A stretch of DNA of 64,000 bases from positions 33,935 to 97,934 of the IMG/VR virus record IMGVR_UViG_3300034389_000010. The stretch is one strand, 5' to 3'. Source of the DNA: a virus. Positions 2,005-46,457 of this stretch are shown here, in pieces (positions within the stretch are counted from its first letter, which is position 1; the number at the start of each line of letters is the position of its first letter). The notes below the pieces were generated by a model. The model searched no databases. It was not told the DNA's origin and was given only the letters and a program-made list of their open reading frames with translations. Position numbers and translations under genes: made by a program.

Positions 2005-5000
2005 GCCTGTCATGACGGCGCTGCTGCGCGTCCAGCTATCGAATGACCTGGCGGCCGAGGTGGCCGCCTTGCCGGCAACCAGCCCCCTGGGGCGAGTGCA
2101 GGCCACGGGGCGCATCGTCGCCCTGCTGCAGCGCCTGGAAGGCCTGACCATCACCCCCGAGCAGGCCGCGTTCGACAAGGCCAAGGCGTTCTATCAGGGC
2201 ACCCTGCAGGGGCAGATCGTGCAATCCGTGGTTGGCCCGGTACGACTGACCGGCAAGGGCTGGCGCAAGGCGAAATTCGGCCTCAAGGAGGACCTGCTCA
2301 AGGCCCGCCTCATCGAGCACATCGTGGAGATCCTGCAGGGCGGTACCGCTGGCCAGCGCCGCGAGCCCTACAAAGAGCGCGATGACGGCATGGTCGCGTT
2401 CTACTTCATCCAGAAGGATGTCCAGATCGACCAGGAGCTGGTCACCGCCGGCGTCACCGTGGGCGAGGATGCCCAGGGCAATCTGTTCTACAACGTCTCG
2501 CATGCCGGGGCCAAGGGCTGGACCGCAAACGAAAACGAAAACGGCACCCTTGATTCCACATGGATAGAGCCACGCTTCGTCTTGGATGCCGTCAATGACA
2601 GCGTAGCAGAGGACGATCTCAATATCACTATCCTGGCAGTGCGTCCTGTCGGCGGCCGCCAGGCCTTCGCCACGGTGGTGCCGGACAAGGGCGGCGCCGT
2701 GCTGATCCTGGGCGATGCCGATGCGATCGCCATGCGGGTCCGCGAGCAGTTCGGCAAGCCGCAGATCGTCGAAGGTGGCGTGCGCCTGACCAAGGGCGAC
2801 GCGCGCCTGGCCGAGTTCATCCCGCGCGAGATCGAGACGCTGGCCAGCGGCGCGGTGCTTGAGCACTACGCCTCGGGCGGCGTCGCCGTGCGCGGGGACT
2901 TCCGGGGCGGCCTGGAGGGCATCGCCCAGGACCTGCCGCACCTGGAGTCGGCTTTCGTGTACAGCCACGGGCCGGAGGTGTTCGCCCAGGTGTTCGGCAA
3001 GGAGGCTGACCCAGCGGATGCTCAAGCCTATTTCGAGCAGCAGGACGAGATCGCCCAGCGCCACGCGGACAACGAAGCCCGCGAGACGGCGGAACGCATC
3101 GAGTACGCCCGGCGCACCGACGACTGGAGCAAGGTCACCGCTGAGGAGCGCGCCCAGCTCCAGGCCGAGCGGGATGCCGCCATGCGTGCCTATGCCGAGC
3201 GCGACCTGGCCAATTGGATGGCCACCATCGGCACCGGTACCTCGGATAACCCGCGCCTGCAAGCCTATCTGGACACCGTCGAGGATCTGTCGCCAGAAAA
3301 CCGCACCATGATCCAGGTCGGTTATATGGGCTGGATCCCTAAGCGCATTGCCGAGTACGAGCCCACCGCCGGCCGTATGCCCTACCTGCCGGGCTCGCCC
3401 ACATACATCGCCTGGCAGGCGGGCTTTACCGCCCTTTGCCGCGCCTGGGCTGATGCGCACCTGTCCGAACGGGTCAAATCTACCGCCTCCGCTGAGCAGG
3501 CGCCGCTGTACCAGGTGACCGAGCTGTATCACGGCACGGCCCTGCCCTTCGATACGTTCGCCGAGGGCCAGCGCCGTGGCGCCGGCTTCGATCACCAGGG
3601 CGCCGGCTGGTACCTGACCAACGATCGCCAGGGCCTGGCCCGCTACTTCGCCAGCATGGCCGCCGTCAAGCTGTCGGGTCGCCCAGGCTTCACCCCCGAG
3701 GAGCAGGAGCTGCTGGAAGAGGGCGTGATTCTGCGCGTCTCGATCGCGGGCACCAGGGTGCTGGATCTGACCCGAGTGGACGCCGATCCCGAGCTGGTGG
3801 CCATGGTGAGCGACATCGTCAACGGCAACGCCCTGCGCGAGCGTGTGCTGGCCATGGGGCTCGATGGCGTCGCCTTCGTCGAGCCCAACCCGCCCGAGGG
3901 CGTGGTAACGCTGCCTGACGCCGTCACTGTGGTCATGTACCACCCGGAAAAGGGCAAAGTCCTGGGCTACGAGGCCGCCGAAAGCGTGCCGGAGCTGCCT
4001 TTCCCCTCGGAGGATCCCCAGCCCGTGCCCCCTACCGGCCGCGCCAAGCCGGGCGGCGAAGTGGGCGTTAATGGCTTCTTCTACAAGGGCGGCACCTTCC
4101 TGCCGACCACCCAGCTGCCGCTACAGGGCAGCCAAGGCCGTACCGCGACCCGCGTCCGTACCTTGCTGATCGAACCCGGCGTGCGCGCTGAGGCGCCCGA
4201 TGGCTATGCGGCCATTTTCGGCAGCTACCTGGAGTTCATCCAAGTCGGCGCCGATGGCGTGGCCAGCCTCCTGGTGCGTCCAGACGAGGCGATCGCCGCC
4301 TATGTGAACGATGACGTGGCCGAAGGGCGTGCGTTCCTGCGCGCGGCCGTGGATGCCTACAACGGCGGCATGCGCTGGTACAAGGCGGGCGACATCGAGG
4401 TCACCGAGGAGCACCGGGAGGAGCCGGCCGCCCCTGAGTACGAGATCATCGAGCACGAGACCGGCCGGAAAAAGATCCTGCGCGGCATCGTCCGGACCGA
4501 CCTCACCTATGCCCAGGCCAAGGCGATCGATGAGTACACGTTCAAGAAGAACGGCGGCTACTTCATCCGCGAGAAGCACCTGGAGAGCATGGGTCTTGCT
4601 CCGGCCGGCGGTGGCGAGCCCGCACCGGAGCCGGCTCTGGACCCCGAGGCCGAGGCCCTGCGCCAGCAGCAGCGCGAGATCGAACGCCAGCAGCGCGAGG
4701 CCGATCGCCTGGCCAATGAGCAGGAGCGTGAGCGCCGCCGGGTGACCGAGCAGGTCGCGACCCTGCGCAAGGTCGCCGCCAGCAGCCTGGAAAAGGCCAC
4801 CGAGGAGCTGAATCGCGACCGCCAGACCAATACCGCCCGCCGCGCCGGCATGGCGGCCAGCATCCTGGAGCGCGCCGAGAAAGATCGCGCCCTGTCGGTG
4901 ACCCTGGGCAACCTCGCCGATGCCATCGAGCAGGGCAAGGCGACGCACCTGGCGGGCCTCACCAGCAAGGCCCAGCTGGACACCCTGCATAACGCCCTGG

Positions 5001-40688: not shown

Positions 40689-41378
40689 ATGGCCATCCCA
40701 ACCTCCGCAAAGAACATGCGCTCGCTCAAGCCGATCCTGGCTAAGCGGCTCAGTGCTGCGCGTCGGGCTGCCAAGCTGAATCAGATCCAGGTCGCTAATC
40801 ACCTGGGCCAAAAGCAGTGCTCGCAAGTCTCCCAGTGGGAAGACGTCGAGAACGAGCGGATGCCCAAGCTCGCCGACCTGATCGCCATGGCCCAGCTCTA
40901 CGCCGTGCCGATGGATTACCTGTGCAACCTGTCGAACGACCCGATCGCGGACGTCACCGAGAACAACCAGGCTTTCCTGGCTCGCATGATGAGCAACGCC
41001 ATCGCCGATGCCCAGGAGCAGTTCACCAAGGCAATGGGCCAGAAGCTCGCCATCACCATCGACAGCCATGGCCAGGACCGCAAGGACCTGCAGTCCATTG
41101 CCCTCGCGGTGCGCGACCTCAAGCAGCGCATCGCCAAGATGCAGGAAATGAACCCCGGTTATGAAGAGGACTGGCGCGGCTACAACCCCGTCAGCCTGTC
41201 CCTGGATCGTCTGGAAGCCCTGGTGCGTGGCGCGGATCAGCGCATCGCCCAGGAGACCCGTCACTGCGCCATCATCGAGAAGGAAATGGCCATTCTCGAC
41301 GGCGAGTTCGAGCGCCGCCAGCGTGCCGATATTGGCCGGACTGTGGCGCAGATGACGCTCGATATGCAGCCCCTCTGA
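40689..41378 (+). CDS. XRE-family HTH transcriptional regulator
   Basis: RL.AAR....LNQ.QVA..LG....VSQWE....P....L...A.LY.V..DYL. Confidence 0.8.
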   Translation: MAIPTSAKNMRSLKPILAKRLSAARRAAKLNQIQVANHLGQKQCSQVSQWEDVENERMPKLADLIAMAQLYAVPMDYLCNLSNDPIADVTENNQAFLARMMSNAIADAQEQFTKAMGQKLAITIDSHGQDRKDLQSIALAVRDLKQRIAKMQEMNPGYEEDWRGYNPVSLSLDRLEALVRGADQRIAQETRHCAIIEKEMAILDGEFERRQRADIGRTVAQMTLDMQPL

Positions 41379-41379
41379 A

Positions 41380-41990
41380 TGTACCCCGAGCCGGGCGGGC
41401 CGCGATGCGGATGCCCCGGACAGCCAGGGTGTGGAGAGCGCTGATTGCAAAGATCCCACACAACCGACACAGGCGAGATTACTCCTCGCGCCCATACGAC
41501 CCTGCAGGCCTCAACCCTGCTAAGTGGGCAAGCCTGGGAATCGGTCGATCGCCCCGCGTGAAGGGGCATGAACAGCAGGACCTCGATCGCCGGCAATGGC
41601 CTGGCGCTCGTGAAGCCGATCCGGCGCCCCGACGCTTAACCGCTCCAGGGGCAAGAGCCAGGATCGCCGGGAGTGGCAACCGGCCCGAGTCATCCACGGA
41701 TGGCATCGGCAAGGTCGGCCGAGGCTATAGCCTCACGTTTTGGGGAGGCCGACCTTGACCAATGCCAGTTCGATGCGGGAGGCGTGGTAGATCGCCGATG
41801 CGTGAGAGCAGTGAAGGGCACCCCTCGCCCAGGCTCACGCTGAAATCTACAAGCCGGGTTGGGGGAGGTTACCCCCCGCGTTTGGCCCTCCGGAGGAGTT
41901 CACCGCGCCTTGGCGATAGGCGGTGCCGATAGCCCGAAAGGGCTGCATCGGAGAGTGCGCCCAACCGCGCACTGCCCCATGCAGCCACCC
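41380..41990 (+). ncRNA. About 600-nt highly structured non-coding region
   Basis: No credible ORF; consecutive and multibranch stems. Confidence 0.5.
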
Positions 41991-42010
41991 CATACCCAGT
42001 GAGACCCGCC

Positions 42011-42430
42011 ATGCAGATCAATCCCCAGCTCGTACAGGCCGCGATGGCCGACAAGGCCGTAGGCCCTGCGATCGCCAGCCTGATCAAGACCTACGCCGAA
42101 GGCCTGCCCGTTCCCGAGCACGTCCCGTTCGCGTTCGCCATTCGTACCGACCTGATTCCCGAGCACTTCGTGGGTGGCGTCCTGCCCCAGGCCGGCGACC
42201 AGCTGTCCCTGCAGGTGTACGACTGCCAGCCCATCACTGCCCAGGATGAGGCCGGCGCCGAAGTATCTGCCCATGGCGTGAAGGCCCGCTATCTGGTGAT
42301 CGCCCCCTGCGGCACCCCGCGCCATCTGCTGATTCCGAAGCCTGCCGACGAAGTGCCTGCCGCTGACGTCGCCAAGACCGAAGCCAAGAAGCCGCGCGCC
42401 ACCCGCAAGCCGCGCGAGGGTAGTAAGTAA
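42011..42430 (+). CDS. Hypothetical protein with basic tail
   Basis: 139 aa, phage-like codon usage. Confidence 0.6.
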   Translation: MQINPQLVQAAMADKAVGPAIASLIKTYAEGLPVPEHVPFAFAIRTDLIPEHFVGGVLPQAGDQLSLQVYDCQPITAQDEAGAEVSAHGVKARYLVIAPCGTPRHLLIPKPADEVPAADVAKTEAKKPRATRKPREGSK

Positions 42431-42446
42431 TACCACCCCTCTGCAT

Positions 42447-42606
42447 CCTGGTGGGGCTCCCCACTAGGCTGCATCGCAGAACCCCCAGCGAACAAGGTCG
42501 GGGGTTGTGCGATGCAGGTAGGCGCAGGACGCGCCCAGGGTATCCAGGCACAGCAATGCGGTAAGTCCTGGTGTTACCCGTCCACCGGCCCGGTGCCTGC
42601 ACCCCA
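42447..42606 (+). ncRNA. Structured RNA module (hairpin + CTGCATCG stem + tRNA-like domain)
   Basis: Complementary segments listed in findings. Confidence 0.45.
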
Positions 42607-42628
42607 TTCCCCTGTCTGTGAGCCTCCA

Positions 42629-43441
42629 ATGACGCCAGCAGCTATCACCAGCGTGCTCAACCTGAGCAGTGCCATCTACGATCTGGCCCAAGCGAGCGAG
42701 AAGGTAGAGTGGGATGTTCGCCACCAGGTAGGCGCCACCATCACTCGCCTGCTCATGGTCATCGACGCCCAAACAGGCCTGCCTGCCGTTGTGGCCAGCC
42801 TCTCCCCTGCTGTCATGGATGAGCTGGTCGAGACGTGTACCCTCGGCCAAGAGCGCGTGTACCGGCATGTTCACCGGGACGCGCCAATGGCGGACGTCGC
42901 GACCCCTGAGCCTCAGCCCGAGGCCGCTGCCTCGGACATCGATGCCGAGCTGACTGCCCTGCTGGCGGCTGTGAATGAGCGCGAGGATGCCGCTCCGGCC
43001 CAGGGCGACGAGCCTGCGTCCGAACCCGAGCTGCGCGCCCTCGGCATTCCCCAGGGCCAGCGTATCGCCTTGCGTGATTCCGGGATCTGCGATCGCAACC
43101 AGCTGCTGGCGCTGACCTGGCGTGAGCTGTCTGACCTGCCCGGTGTGGGTCTGGCTGGCGCCTCGATCATCCGTCGCAAGGTGGCCAGTGCCGGCTATGC
43201 GCTGGCAACCGAGGTCCAGGACCAGGACGACCTGGTGCGCCATGAGCCCAACTGCAGCACTGTGGGCCTGCGGATCCACCCCGACCTGCGCATGCGCCTG
43301 AATGACCTGCGGATCTACGATCTGGACGACCTGTGCCGGGTAGGCCATGCGGCCCTGGCCAGTGACCTGGTGATCGGTGACATAGGTGCTGCCTGCCTGG
43401 CGCAGAAGGCCCGCAACTTCGGCCGCGAGCTGGCGGCCTGA
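42629..43441 (+). CDS. Protein with tandem RNA polymerase alpha-CTD-like (HhH) domains
   Basis: L..LGI......L.DSGI....QLL.LT..EL..LPGVG; second, weaker copy. Confidence 0.6.
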   Translation: MTPAAITSVLNLSSAIYDLAQASEKVEWDVRHQVGATITRLLMVIDAQTGLPAVVASLSPAVMDELVETCTLGQERVYRHVHRDAPMADVATPEPQPEAAASDIDAELTALLAAVNEREDAAPAQGDEPASEPELRALGIPQGQRIALRDSGICDRNQLLALTWRELSDLPGVGLAGASIIRRKVASAGYALATEVQDQDDLVRHEPNCSTVGLRIHPDLRMRLNDLRIYDLDDLCRVGHAALASDLVIGDIGAACLAQKARNFGRELAA

Positions 43442-43578
43442 TCAAAGCGGCCCGCCGGCGTACTGGTGGGCTGTATCGGAGAGCGTCATGGTGGTCGCTT
43501 GCGACCTAACTCAGGGAAGCCGGTCGGTGTCATGACCTCAGTACCTGGGCGCCGTGGAAGACCATGACGCTCCCCGAT

Positions 43579-43729
43579 GCAGGTGAATGCGCAGGCTGAT
43601 GCGCTACACGGTCGCGAGAAGAGAAGGTTTTGGCGGATGAACGTGCTAGGCCGTGATTAGGTTCGCGGCTGCTATGCAAAACCACCGGATCGCCATCTAT
43701 GCCGGGATCAGCTCCGGCCACCTGCACCA
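43579..43729 (+). ncRNA. tRNA-like RNA ending in ACCA
   Basis: 7-bp acceptor-like stem, D-like and T-like arms, discriminator A plus CCA. Confidence 0.55.
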
Positions 43730-43851
43730 CGCGCCCAGGATTGGGCGTCGCGACCACAAGTCGCTTGCCGCGCATGGCCCAGGCCACCAGAAGCGCGCCG
43801 GAGGGGGTAACCGGCACCCATACCTATTAGATCGAACGGATAATCACCATC

Positions 43852-44727
43852 ATGACCGCATTGCAGAAACCGACCCAGGAGAGCGTCATCGCCTCGATCG
43901 TCCGCGTGCAGTTCCACCACTGGGAAGACACCCAGTTCGTGAGCTGCCTGGTCGAGCGCGATGACGGTTTCCGTGCCCACGGGTTCCACAACCCTATCGA
44001 CCCCGCTGACTTCGACCTGGAAGAGTCCCAGCGGCTGGCCTACGCCGGCGCCGTCGCCACGCTGTACGGCCTCGCCGTGTCCGGGTTCTTCGAGCGTCGC
44101 GCCATGCTGGCCGGCGCCCATGACGTGCTCGATCGCTGTGGGGTGGGTAACGAGGACGTGAGCGCGCTGAGGTTCGGCGCAGTCATGCCGGATGCCGGCA
44201 CGCAGGAGCTGTACGACAGATTGGCCGCTGTGCTGGACAAGAGGCAGCCCCTCCCCGAATGGCCGCCAGCCACCCAGGAGCAGCGCGACGCGATCCAGCA
44301 ACTCCTGGGTGCTCACCTGGTGGGCGAGGTGGAGCCTGCTGGCCCCTTCGAGTATCCCGAGACGCCTTATATCCAGGTCAAGAACCCCACGCTCACCGTA
44401 AACAGTTACTTCGGCGGGAAGCCATCCACCGAGGTAGGCCCTGCAGCTGGATCTGCCGTGATCGTTCGTATGCCTGAGTCGTTTAAGTACCCCCATGGTG
44501 CCGAGGTGATCGGCGTCGTGAAGCGTGGCCCCCAGTGCCCTGGGTCCATGGGTGTCGAGATCGCTATTGATTCGCCAGGGCGCTTCTCTGCCACCACCTC
44601 GATCTATGCCCACCGCTGGAACCAGCTCGACCTGGTAGAGCGGCCTTTCACCGAGGATGAGGCCAGACAGCTTGGCGTCATTCGCGGGCACCTGGAAGCC
44701 GAGGGGGTTTATCGTGCGACCCCCTGA
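43852..44727 (+). CDS. N-terminal phage gp49/66 (Acb4-like) domain fused to unknown domains
   Basis: SC.V...DGF...G....DPADFD.E....LA...A...L..L pattern. Confidence 0.55.
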   Translation: MTALQKPTQESVIASIVRVQFHHWEDTQFVSCLVERDDGFRAHGFHNPIDPADFDLEESQRLAYAGAVATLYGLAVSGFFERRAMLAGAHDVLDRCGVGNEDVSALRFGAVMPDAGTQELYDRLAAVLDKRQPLPEWPPATQEQRDAIQQLLGAHLVGEVEPAGPFEYPETPYIQVKNPTLTVNSYFGGKPSTEVGPAAGSAVIVRMPESFKYPHGAEVIGVVKRGPQCPGSMGVEIAIDSPGRFSATTSIYAHRWNQLDLVERPFTEDEARQLGVIRGHLEAEGVYRATP

Positions 44728-45238
44728 GACCTGCGAGTGCCGCTATAGCGCCGATACCGAGGATCTGACCTGGTGCCTGGGGTGTCGGGAAGCCGAGGAG
44801 GCCCGCAAGGTCACTCCGCGTCCTGGTCGCCTCGCCCGGTTGCGTGCTTGGCTGACTGAGCGCCAGCCCGAACAGGCCCGGATCGCCGTAGGACCTGCAC
44901 AGGTCATGGTTGCAGCGGGGAGCCCGATTACTGTCCTGGGCGTCCGTGCTCACCTGGTCGAGTCCGCCCAGCTGTTCGCCCATCCGAGTGAGGCCCAGGC
45001 GCTCCAGGCCATGGGAACGGGTAGACCGCGCTGGAAGGTGCTCGCTGCTCGCCTGGCCTATGGCGCAATCGCCCTGGGGTTGGCTGCCAACATTGCCATC
45101 TACGCTTATGAGGCCTGGCAGACCCACCACATCGCGAGCACCGTGATCCCTGCTACCTGGTTCTACGCCACCCTCACCTACGCCACGCTCCGCAAAGCCC
45201 GCCACCCCTTCCGCCCGGTACTGCTCCGGGTCTGGTAA
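44714..45238 (+). CDS. Membrane protein with N-terminal Cys cluster
   Basis: GTG with GAGGGG; two C-terminal TMs. Confidence 0.5.
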   Translation: MRPPETCECRYSADTEDLTWCLGCREAEEARKVTPRPGRLARLRAWLTERQPEQARIAVGPAQVMVAAGSPITVLGVRAHLVESAQLFAHPSEAQALQAMGTGRPRWKVLAARLAYGAIALGLAANIAIYAYEAWQTHHIASTVIPATWFYATLTYATLRKARHPFRPVLLRVW

Positions 45239-45259
45239 TCCCCCAGGGGCTCGCCATTC

Positions 45260-45300
45260 GGAAAGCCCCGCATTCTCCTGCCCCTGTGGCGCCCTACTCT
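45260..45300 (+). promoter_or_regulatory. Putative late promoter GGAAAG-N29-TACTCT
   Basis: Conserved motif; upstream of TerS. Confidence 0.7.
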
Positions 45301-45497
45301 GACCCTGCGCACCTGCTCGCCTCCTGAGTGTTAGCCGGGGGTCACTCCCCGAAACGTCGTGTGTCGCCAATGGCTCGATCCATGAGGGCGCACAAGGGAC
45401 GAATAAGCAGGGAATGCCGGGACGGGCATCGTCTCCCCAGTAGGGCCACGCTACGGCGATCCAGTGGCACCAATTCCCTCCCTATCTAGGAATCGCC

Positions 45498-46457
45498 ATG
45501 GCTCCGCCCAAGACCACGGCCAGTAAGCCAGCCACCAAGCGCAAGGCCCCGGCCAAGAAGCCCGCCACCCCCAAGGCCAAGACGGCCAGTAAGCCCAAGG
45601 CCGCAAAGCCTGATCCGGTACCTGCCACTCCCCTCACCCCCGAGGAGGAGCTACTGGCGTCCATGGATCCTCGTCACGTCCGGTTCGTGGAGAGCTACCT
45701 GGGTTCGTACAACCAGACCAGCGCCTACCGTGCAGCCTTCGACACCAAGGGGGACATGAGCGACAACAGCTGCGCCGCCAACGCCTCACGCCTGCTAAGA
45801 ACTGATAAGGTCGCCCGGCTCATGGCCCTGCGCGTCCGTCAGGCATTCGACGATATGGACGGGGACATCAAGACCCGCGCCCTTGAGCGTCTGATGGGCA
45901 TGGCCTTCGGCGATCCGAACGAGCTGACCGAGATCCGCCGGGAGTGCTGCCGCTTCTGCTACGGCATCGATAACGAATACCAGTACAAGCCCAGCGAGTG
46001 GCGCGAGAAGCTGGACGAGTACGCTCGCGACCTGGCCGAGGCGACCAAGAACGAAAGCAAGCCGCCGGCAGAGCCCAAGCCGGCAGGCGGTACCGGCTTT
46101 GATCCGCGCCTGGAGCCCAATGCCGAATGCCCCGAGTGCTTTGGTGAAGGCGTAGAGCGCCAAGTGCTCAAGGACACCCGTCACCTGTCTCCTGCCGGCC
46201 GCGCCCTGTACGCCGGGTCGAAGTGGACCAAGGACGGCCTGCAGATCCTGCAGCACGACCAGCTCAAGGCCTTCGATATGCTGACCAGGGTCATCAAGAT
46301 GCTGGACGACCGCCCCGAGGCGATCATCAACGTCGTCGCCGCCGAGGTCCTGGACGAGATTTACACCAAGGCCATGCAGAACGCGGCAGAAGGCAAGGAA
46401 CGGCTGGGCGCAAGGCTCGGCGTGCCCCCGCCGGTGCGGCCAGGGCTCACGGGCTGA
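45498..46457 (+). CDS. Terminase small subunit with Zn-finger insertion
   Basis: RFVESYL..YNQT.AYRAA...NASRLL...KV; CC.FC.G...CPEC.GEG; HDQ.KA. Confidence 0.75.
   Translation: MAPPKTTASKPATKRKAPAKKPATPKAKTASKPKAAKPDPVPATPLTPEEELLASMDPRHVRFVESYLGSYNQTSAYRAAFDTKGDMSDNSCAANASRLLRTDKVARLMALRVRQAFDDMDGDIKTRALERLMGMAFGDPNELTEIRRECCRFCYGIDNEYQYKPSEWREKLDEYARDLAEATKNESKPPAEPKPAGGTGFDPRLEPNAECPECFGEGVERQVLKDTRHLSPAGRALYAGSKWTKDGLQILQHDQLKAFDMLTRVIKMLDDRPEAIINVVAAEVLDEIYTKAMQNAAEGKERLGARLGVPPPVRPGLTG

Follow-up and report, generated by a model that had tools for sequence, protein, structure and literature searches.

A predicted tRNA-shaped phage RNA with mutually pairing side loops and an exchangeable arm

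Introduction

Several RNAs borrow part of the shape of transfer RNA (tRNA). The tRNA-like domain of transfer-messenger RNA (tmRNA), the bacterial Y RNA YrlA, the species 1 and 2 RNAs of phage T4 and engineered tRNA scaffolds all keep the stack of acceptor and T arms while the anticodon region is replaced, and they retain the canonical T-loop and the tertiary contacts of the elbow. The C4 antisense RNA of phages P1 and P7 and the CI immunity RNA of satellite phage P4 are excised by host RNase P from longer transcripts, by virtue of an acceptor-like helix with a 3' CCA; in both, the frame is conserved and the short recognition loops set on it vary. Here we describe an element of 151 nucleotides (nt) at positions 43579–43729 (+ strand) of a 64,000-nt stretch of viral DNA (hereafter the window), which is the second part of a 97.9-kb virus record (IMG/VR, IMGVR_UViG_3300034389_000010). 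An earlier sequence-only reading had described it as a CCA-ending tRNA mimic in which Watson-Crick pairing between the loops replaces the usual contact of the D and T loops. Relatives of the element allowed us to examine that description.

The element resembles tRNA in having a closing helix of 7 base pairs (bp) stacked without a spacer on a 5-bp T-like stem, and in the order of its hairpins. It differs in having no anticodon arm, a D-like stem of 5 bp with a 6-nt loop, and a T-like loop of 8–10 nt without T-Psi-C. Neither a UUCRANY T-loop nor the GG of the D-loop elbow is present; the loops are instead AGAUCAGCA and GGCUGA, and the elbow consists of Watson-Crick pairs. The same feature, a covarying kissing helix of 5 bp, separates the element from the other tRNA mimics. 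C4 is listed among the substrates of RNase P (PMC11143913). The C4 model (RF01695) gave no match to the element, even at E values up to 10, and the element also departs from C4 in its pair of conserved hairpins, which a kissing helix connects, and in a far larger middle that is freely replaced between relatives. Phage tRNA genes are found at the same genomic positions and on the same strand as the element, often next to it. Finally, the pR'-tR' late leader RNAs of lambdoid phages (lambda 6S, and StxS of Stx2 phages) are comparable in that the element of HK620 and of one further phage locus (L199) lies inside a short transcript running from a Q-dependent late promoter to a terminator; these leaders, however, are defined by position and not by a shared fold, whereas the element is a portable module, and phi80 has a late leader but no element. 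Unscored by the tRNA and C4 models and without the elbow nucleotides of tRNA, the element is a member of none of these groups, that is, the C4 and P4 CI RNAs, tRNA genes, pR'-tR' leaders or other mimics. Among tRNA-like phage RNAs it stands out because its elbow is a kissing helix, its arm is exchangeable and it is very widely distributed. It also indicates that a covarying kissing helix can serve to rebuild the corner of a tRNA.

Covariation and architecture of the element

The three helices that had been read from the sequence were located exactly where they had been placed (Table 1): the closing helix GCAGGTG/CACCTGC followed by A and CCA, the GCCGG/CCGGC stem abutting it, and the D-like hairpin. 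The proposed pairing between the loops was also present, but was shorter than claimed: GCTGA is complementary to TCAGC, and the helix comprises 5 bp instead of 6 because T43600 already pairs inside the D-like stem. The minimum-free-energy fold of the 151 nt retained all three helices. Because the z-score of this fold was only −1.94, the single sequence is not beyond chance, and taken alone it could be a chance arrangement.

Pairing statistics were therefore of interest in relatives, and were taken from 100 distinct sequences aligned to a covariance model. Standard pairs were formed in 99.0% of cells, and 13 of the 17 pairs changed on both sides (6 of 7 in the closing helix). Not one of 500 shuffles reached any of the five measures used, and controls with slid partners paired at 25–45%. 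Because this alignment is fitted to the model, we added a model-independent test, in which the D-like 20-mer and, separately, the T-like hairpin served as anchors and yielded 171 distinct elements. The 7 nt before AAT and the 7 nt after the T-like stem paired perfectly in 134 of the 171 and at six or more positions in 151; when partners were swapped, perfect pairing fell to 15 of 171. These closing helices had 69 different 5' strands.

The loops varied together as well. GCUGA in the D-like loop faced UCAGC in 79 rows of the alignment; in 8 others its partner was UCAGU, which gives a G-U pair. When D-like loops with a changed middle U were sought specifically, the variant GCCGA was found in 7 distinct cases, 6 of which had UCGGC, UCGGU or ACGGC as the partner. 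GGUGA faced UCACC in one case. As judged by this covariation, which is strong, the element is a genuine tRNA-shaped RNA in which the two side loops pair with each other; the tRNA-like fold and the Watson-Crick contact between its loops, both proposed from the one sequence, gained strong support from more than 100 relatives. Comparative analysis establishes, as a predicted structure, a stack of 12 bp (a closing helix of at least 7 bp on the 5-bp T-like stem), the AAU linker and the kissing elbow. In strength, the covariation support for the family equals that of curated Rfam families.

The folded RNA is that of the + strand, because the first pair of the T stem is G-U in 13 rows and because G-U outnumbers A-C in the closing helix, 19 to 8. 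The element was co-oriented with most of the neighbouring genes called in 14 Pseudomonadaceae loci and with its neighbours in P1, HK620, Pseudomonas phage YA3 and an Stx2 phage. These observations bear on a role at the DNA level, either as an inverted-repeat site for a recombinase or as a fold of single-stranded DNA. Taken together, the closing helix and the two loop segments resemble terminal inverted repeats, albeit imperfect ones, and the middle is cassette-like. On the other strand, however, the G-U pairs would be A-C mismatches; moreover, both local hairpins covary, the element runs with transcription throughout, and no recombinase is a constant neighbour. We hardly credit this explanation.

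Conserved junction and loop nucleotides accompany the helices. AA or AU directly preceded the T-like stem in 148 of the 171 elements, and the family consensus of the T-like hairpin was GCCGG-AGAUCAGCA-CCGGC. Near-invariant junction and loop nucleotides (AAU, GGCUGA, AGAUCAGCA, and AA or AU before the T-like stem), a pseudoknot and optional variable stems would also suit a small self-cleaving ribozyme, in which a compact pseudoknotted core is conserved and peripheral stems vary. We consider a ribozyme very improbable, as no Rfam ribozyme family matched at E values up to 10, no cleavage site was evident, and nothing else pointed in this direction.

Distribution among phages

The nearest public relative was found on a 114-kb plasmid of Pseudomonas psychrotolerans, which matched window positions 43568–43855 at 95% identity; its flanking genes were 78–84% identical, and the gene upstream was missing. 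Phage L004, a complete genome of 93.8 kb, kept both ends of the element around an unrelated and shorter middle. Contigs of two further sequencing runs had near-identical ends (0–3 differences per aligned piece), and their middle was swapped for an unrelated 63 or 88 letters. A BLAST search of 401 sampled Pseudomonadaceae genomes likewise matched only the two ends, in about 15 genomes and with middles of many lengths between them. With the flanking proteins as queries, no relative turned up among IMG/VR or GTDB genomes; the downstream protein had five homologues.

Beyond these relatives, the exact 20-mer of the D-like hairpin occurred in more than 120 IMG/VR contigs, in more than 119 metagenome contigs and in 199 named phages, chiefly of Klebsiella (56), Pseudomonas (52) and Escherichia (37), with Burkholderia, Salmonella, Erwinia and others among the remainder. 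A covariance model built from 15 sequences (R1) scored the window element at 122.5 bits. It found full-length copies in P1 (two, 69.6 and 52.8 bits), HK620 (72.6), YA3 (69.3), the Stx2 phage (60), the virulent Klebsiella phage UPM 2146 of the Ackermannviridae (67.5) and the N15-like PY54 (49.7). The window element has every part that defines this family: the closing helix, AAU, GCGCA-GGCUGA-UGCGC, a variable middle, GCCGG, a loop with UCAGC, CCGGC and the closing strand. The HK620 copy was present in 108 of 5,426 RefSeq Escherichia coli genomes. R1 found no copy in phi80. An old orphan substrate of RNase P, the M3 RNA of phi80, was considered as a relative and set aside, being annotated as an oop homologue in a phage that lacks the element.

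As had been anticipated from the sequence, neither ARAGORN nor Rfam recognised the element. ARAGORN reported no tRNA or tmRNA in the window, and Rfam 15 gave no match at gathering scores, nor any at E values up to 10 on positions 41300–44000 or on an 82-nt family member. Of the 40 phage matches listed, 27 (including those in P1 and HK620) fell where nothing is annotated, and the others overlapped protein-coding calls, mostly of hypothetical proteins; 11 of the 12 listed RefSeq E. coli matches were unannotated. A search of paper texts, whose coverage of the literature is incomplete, with the conserved strings and with keywords returned no description. We concluded from these comparisons that the predicted element belongs to a large family with copies in hundreds of phages, which has escaped annotation: we found it neither in Rfam, nor among GenBank or RefSeq annotations, nor in the text of any paper searched. 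If this is true, P1, HK620, Stx2 phages and hundreds more carry an unannotated structured RNA, and a covariance model of the family would improve the annotation of phage genomes.

The variable middle

In place of the anticodon arm the sequence-only reading had noted other structure, and a variable middle was indeed found throughout the family where tRNA has its anticodon and variable arms. The particular stem that it had cited, GGTTTTG/CAAAACC, fared less well: two of its pairs were lost in the closest relative, and other relatives had the whole middle replaced. Among the 171 elements the middle ranged from 12 to 367 nt and fell into 141 k-mer clusters, and one closing helix (TGTGGTG/CACCACA) was combined with 24 different clusters. 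Sequence comparison thus indicates that the middle behaves as an exchangeable, hypervariable cassette on a fixed frame.

An antisense role for the middle was tried and rejected, as complementarity was no higher than in controls. The longest complementary run between the window middle and its own genome was 11–12 nt (10–13 nt for shuffles), and the longest run between middles and their flanks (2.5 kb on each side) averaged 9.0 nt, against 8.9 nt for non-cognate flanks. This lack of excess complementarity to flanks or own genome is a further difference from C4.

One middle of about 170 nt, starting with AAGTGTAAGACCTG or GAGTGTAAGACCTG, was kept in five genomes (L166, L172, L180, L209 and L259) in which the closing helices differ. 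Three copies were scanned (L166, L172 and L180), and no Rfam family matched them at gathering scores. Because it is kept across genomes with different closing helices, its conservation suggests that this middle may itself be a functional RNA.

Genomic positions and their bearing on function

In temperate phages the family occupies three regulatory places: behind cI, behind Q, and in the company of phage tRNA genes. The layout was clearest in L199, where the order is a Q antiterminator gene (PF06530), a sigma-70-like promoter, a leader, the element, a terminator, and genes for a holin, an HNH endonuclease and terminase; a good promoter overlaps the Q stop codon, the leader is about 80 nt and the element 82 nt long, and the intrinsic terminator is strong. 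In HK620 the annotated pR'/qut precedes the copy and the late terminator (tR') follows it, ahead of S, R and Rz, and the YA3 copy lies between Q and the holin gene. The latter (L449, 1997–2125) overlaps the annotated start of the holin (coding sequence from 2070), whose start codon may have been mis-called. In the Stx2 phage the element follows cI on the same strand. Among neighbours at IMG/VR loci, the recurrent families were Q-like antiterminators and CI-like repressors upstream (81 neighbours), and endolysins and holins downstream (82 neighbours). No gene, recombinases included, was a constant neighbour on either side.

These positions would suit a cis-acting leader element that controls read-through, in a put-like or antiterminator-assisting manner, or the translation of the next gene, with no RNA being released. 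The HK620 and L199 layouts, the Q-like antiterminators upstream and the holins and endolysins downstream all agree with such a role, as do a Shine-Dalgarno sequence and start codon beginning 20–59 nt behind the element in 44 of the 171 cases. In the window itself, a long hairpin upstream competes with the closing helix for the four bases with which the latter begins. The same core, however, also precedes tRNA genes, follows cI, stands immediately ahead of terminators and is present in a virulent phage. It has no constant relation to a ribosome-binding site or to a terminator (a terminator-like hairpin stood behind 17 of the 171 elements), and no start codon was found within the core. The competing hairpin is confined to the window's subgroup, and no alternative pairing was seen across the family. 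Overall, we regard control in cis as unlikely.

Genes for tRNA adjoined the element on the same strand at about 10 of 60 IMG/VR loci, in one case on both sides. P1 (L446, OP279344.1) has two unannotated copies, at 2496–2630 and 2925–3026, between tRNA-Thr and tciA; they follow tRNA-Asn and tRNA-Thr and flank a small hypothetical coding sequence. The c4 gene of P1 is located elsewhere, so that one phage carries c4 and, at a different place, two copies of the element.

The sequence-only reading had proposed a processing signal or a decoy for tRNA-targeting toxins and defences, and the positions in tRNA clusters, after Q and after cI would be compatible with either. Some phage tRNA genes counter defences that target tRNA. 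The company of tRNA genes raises a decoy or sponge, that is, a tRNA look-alike that would occupy a host or defence factor that reads the shape of tRNA, candidates being a defence nuclease that cuts tRNA, an enzyme that modifies or matures it, or a sensor of its uncharged form. Both hairpins are near-invariant across phages of Pseudomonas, Klebsiella, Escherichia, Burkholderia and others, while the closing helix and the middle vary freely. The near-invariance of the hairpin stems argues for a conserved cellular partner that reads them, and such a pattern fits that partner better than the needs of folding alone. By analogy with lambda, the positions after cI and pR' would also be transcribed in lysogens. 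The element nevertheless lacks the anticodon arm, which is the target of known anticodon nucleases, and no gene among its neighbours co-occurs with it constantly. We consider a decoy quite improbable as the explanation, though it does not exclude the release of the RNA by tRNA-maturing enzymes that we discuss below.

Other features recurred close to copies of the element. In four Pseudomonadaceae prophages a protein of about 190 amino acids, phrog_3412, is encoded directly upstream (L193, 7197–7784; L194, 6230–6829; L202, 5753–6295; L198, 5983–6654). Because it occupies the place that the Q antiterminator has in other phages, it is, by analogy, a candidate late regulator. In another genome the Proteo-phage-1 RNA is matched in full (74.7 bits), and a family member follows some 120 nt downstream (L161, 1300–1379; L198, 6775–6854), and a weak match is present in the window (41385–41465, + strand; 26.5 bits, E 0.055, below the gathering score); Proteo-phage-1 RNA and the element may travel together. 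In L166 (1698–1782) and L202 (7180–7264) the element is directly followed at its 3' end by the Rfam DUF3800-VII RNA, with int-alpA RNA about 600 nt upstream in the same leader, so that several orphan RNA motifs cluster there.

Proposed excision by tRNA-maturing enzymes

We favour, as an explanation that is quite possible though short of probable, that host tRNA-maturing enzymes excise the element as a stable small RNA displaying the variable arm and, in doing so, also cut the polycistronic transcript. The module would be transcribed within longer phage transcripts, namely late leaders after Q, run-on transcripts from cI and tRNA clusters; in the phage-plasmid of the window it would be part of an operon upstream of the terminase genes. 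RNase P is proposed to cut at the 5' end of the module because the module has the shape that tRNA-maturing enzymes measure, and the 3' end would be completed by trimming, whether or not the CCA-adding enzyme takes part. The first product would be a stable small RNA in which a freely exchangeable 'cargo' arm replaces the anticodon arm, as in engineered tRNA scaffolds but of natural origin. The second would be the cut itself, which would part the upstream leader from the downstream message. Phages might then exchange the cargo arms of a shared frame in the way that they exchange moron genes.

Several features favour excision by RNase P, namely the fixed geometry, the company of tRNA genes, U at position −1, the enrichment of CC(A) and the stand-alone layouts. 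A U at −1 and CC(A) behind the helix are signals favoured by bacterial RNase P. The first was present in 90 of the 171 elements. As for the second, CCA was enriched at offsets 0–3 behind the helix, with 9–17 cases per offset against about 4 further out. The CCA end noted from the sequence thus holds for the subgroup of the window and is enriched in the family, but does not define it.

Other observations weigh against this explanation. Only 14 of the 171 elements had NCCA directly after the 7-bp helix, most members being without CCA, and the closing helix extended past 7 bp in 109 of the 171, up to 21 bp; a missing CCA and an extended closing helix are not the appearance of a standard RNase P substrate. 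The Rfam tRNA model (RF00005) gave the element no score, and its loops are without the conserved elbow nucleotides. The middles as a group were only weakly structured (mean z −0.74), and the comparisons with own genome and flanks revealed no target for a cargo. The hairpin stems hardly vary though they are free to, which points to a sequence-specific partner that the scaffold idea leaves unnamed. Moreover, the processing steps are all ones that we infer from sequence. The wider proposal, that the family is a new and widespread class of phage RNA in which a kissing-elbow tRNA scaffold is excised by tRNA-processing enzymes and carries a swappable cargo arm (a decoy, an aptamer or a regulator), is accordingly a tentative one that we hold to be doubtful. 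It offers testable handles on why long late leaders are kept, on what accompanies phage tRNA clusters, and on whether phages have a natural tRNA scaffold for expressing variable small RNAs.

The window and neighbouring features

The likely genes around the site are all on the + strand. Upstream are a resolvase-like gene and NinB, and downstream is the gene for the terminase small subunit (45498–46457); the element itself lies in a 410-nt gap between genes at 42629–43441 and 43852–44727. A consensus scan of 41000–45600 found no sigma-70-like promoter and no + strand terminator, and because of this the window element is probably transcribed within a longer message. Two soil metatranscriptome contigs cover 43555–43782 and not its flanks; such contigs carry no ends, strand or level, and are a hint at most.

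Table 1. Positions of the element, its parts and nearby features in the window.
Feature	Position	Strand	Remarks
Closing ('acceptor') helix, 5' strand GCAGGTG	43579–43585	+	Pairs with 43719–43725
AAT linker, closing helix to D-like hairpin	43586–43588	+	AAU in 97 of 100 distinct members
D-like hairpin GCGCA-GGCTGA-TGCGC	43589–43604	+	Near-invariant; 3 of 5 pairs with changes on both sides
GCTGA of the D-like loop, 5' half of kissing helix	43595–43599	+	Covaries with T-like loop
Variable middle, at anticodon/variable arm position	43605–43700	+	Replaced in close relatives
T-like hairpin GCCGG-GATCAGCT-CCGGC	43701–43718	+	Stem strands 43701–43705 and 43714–43718; 4 of 5 pairs change on both sides
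TCAGC of the T-like loop, 3' half of kissing helix	43708–43712	+	Covaries with D-like loop
Closing helix, 3' strand CACCTGC	43719–43725	+	Abuts T-like stem; no intervening nucleotide in 99 of 100 members
ACCA tail	43726–43729	+	In window, L002, L004, L156 and L157; GCCA in HK620
Long upstream hairpin	43471–43582	+	22-nt arms 43471–43492 and 43561–43582, 91% complementary
Structured leader, element to next gene (ATG 43852)	43730–43851	+	Within 95%-identical block
Second cloverleaf-like element (B)	42513–42606	+	Minimum-free-energy fold is a cloverleaf, z = −0.75

The sequence-only reading had also listed a related element at 42513–42606 (B). It folds as a cloverleaf, but its membership in the family was not borne out: R1 gave no match to it at E values up to 1. 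Its sole homologue was in one plasmid, where the copy ends in ...CCTGCACCA and shows one possible compensatory change, and its loops differ from those of the family. We also considered B as a distant family member and rejected this, as it was unmatched by R1 and its BLAST hits in Pseudomonadaceae were host coding genes. The gene between B and the element (42629–43441) encodes 270 amino acids without a Pfam hit; it is missing from the P. psychrotolerans plasmid, where B and the counterpart of the 43579–43729 element (C) are 186 nt apart, and is shorter in L004. It behaves like an insertable gene between two RNA modules.

The leader that follows the element is outside the wider family. It holds several hairpins and is more conserved than the flanking genes; in one hairpin (43797–43815) the stem GCCGG/CCGGC of the window is CCCGG/CCGGG in L004, a compensatory change from G-C to C-G.

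The last four bases of the long upstream hairpin are the first four of the closing helix (GCAG), so that the two pairings compete, and this arrangement is repeated in L004 and L002. In L165, L159 and L185 the same CATCGG/CCGATG arms lengthen the closing helix of the element instead. Long helices of 18–22 bp recur more generally, with closing arms CTG(C/T)ATCGG...CCGATGCAG. Two of them are in the window (43471–43492 with 43561–43582, and 42469–42486 with 42500–42517), each just upstream of an element (the second of B) and sharing GCAG with it. By length only, these helices are candidate sites for RNase III. A 20-bp version in L204 (6775–6911) encloses a hairpin with a canonical GGGTTCGAATCCC T-arm.

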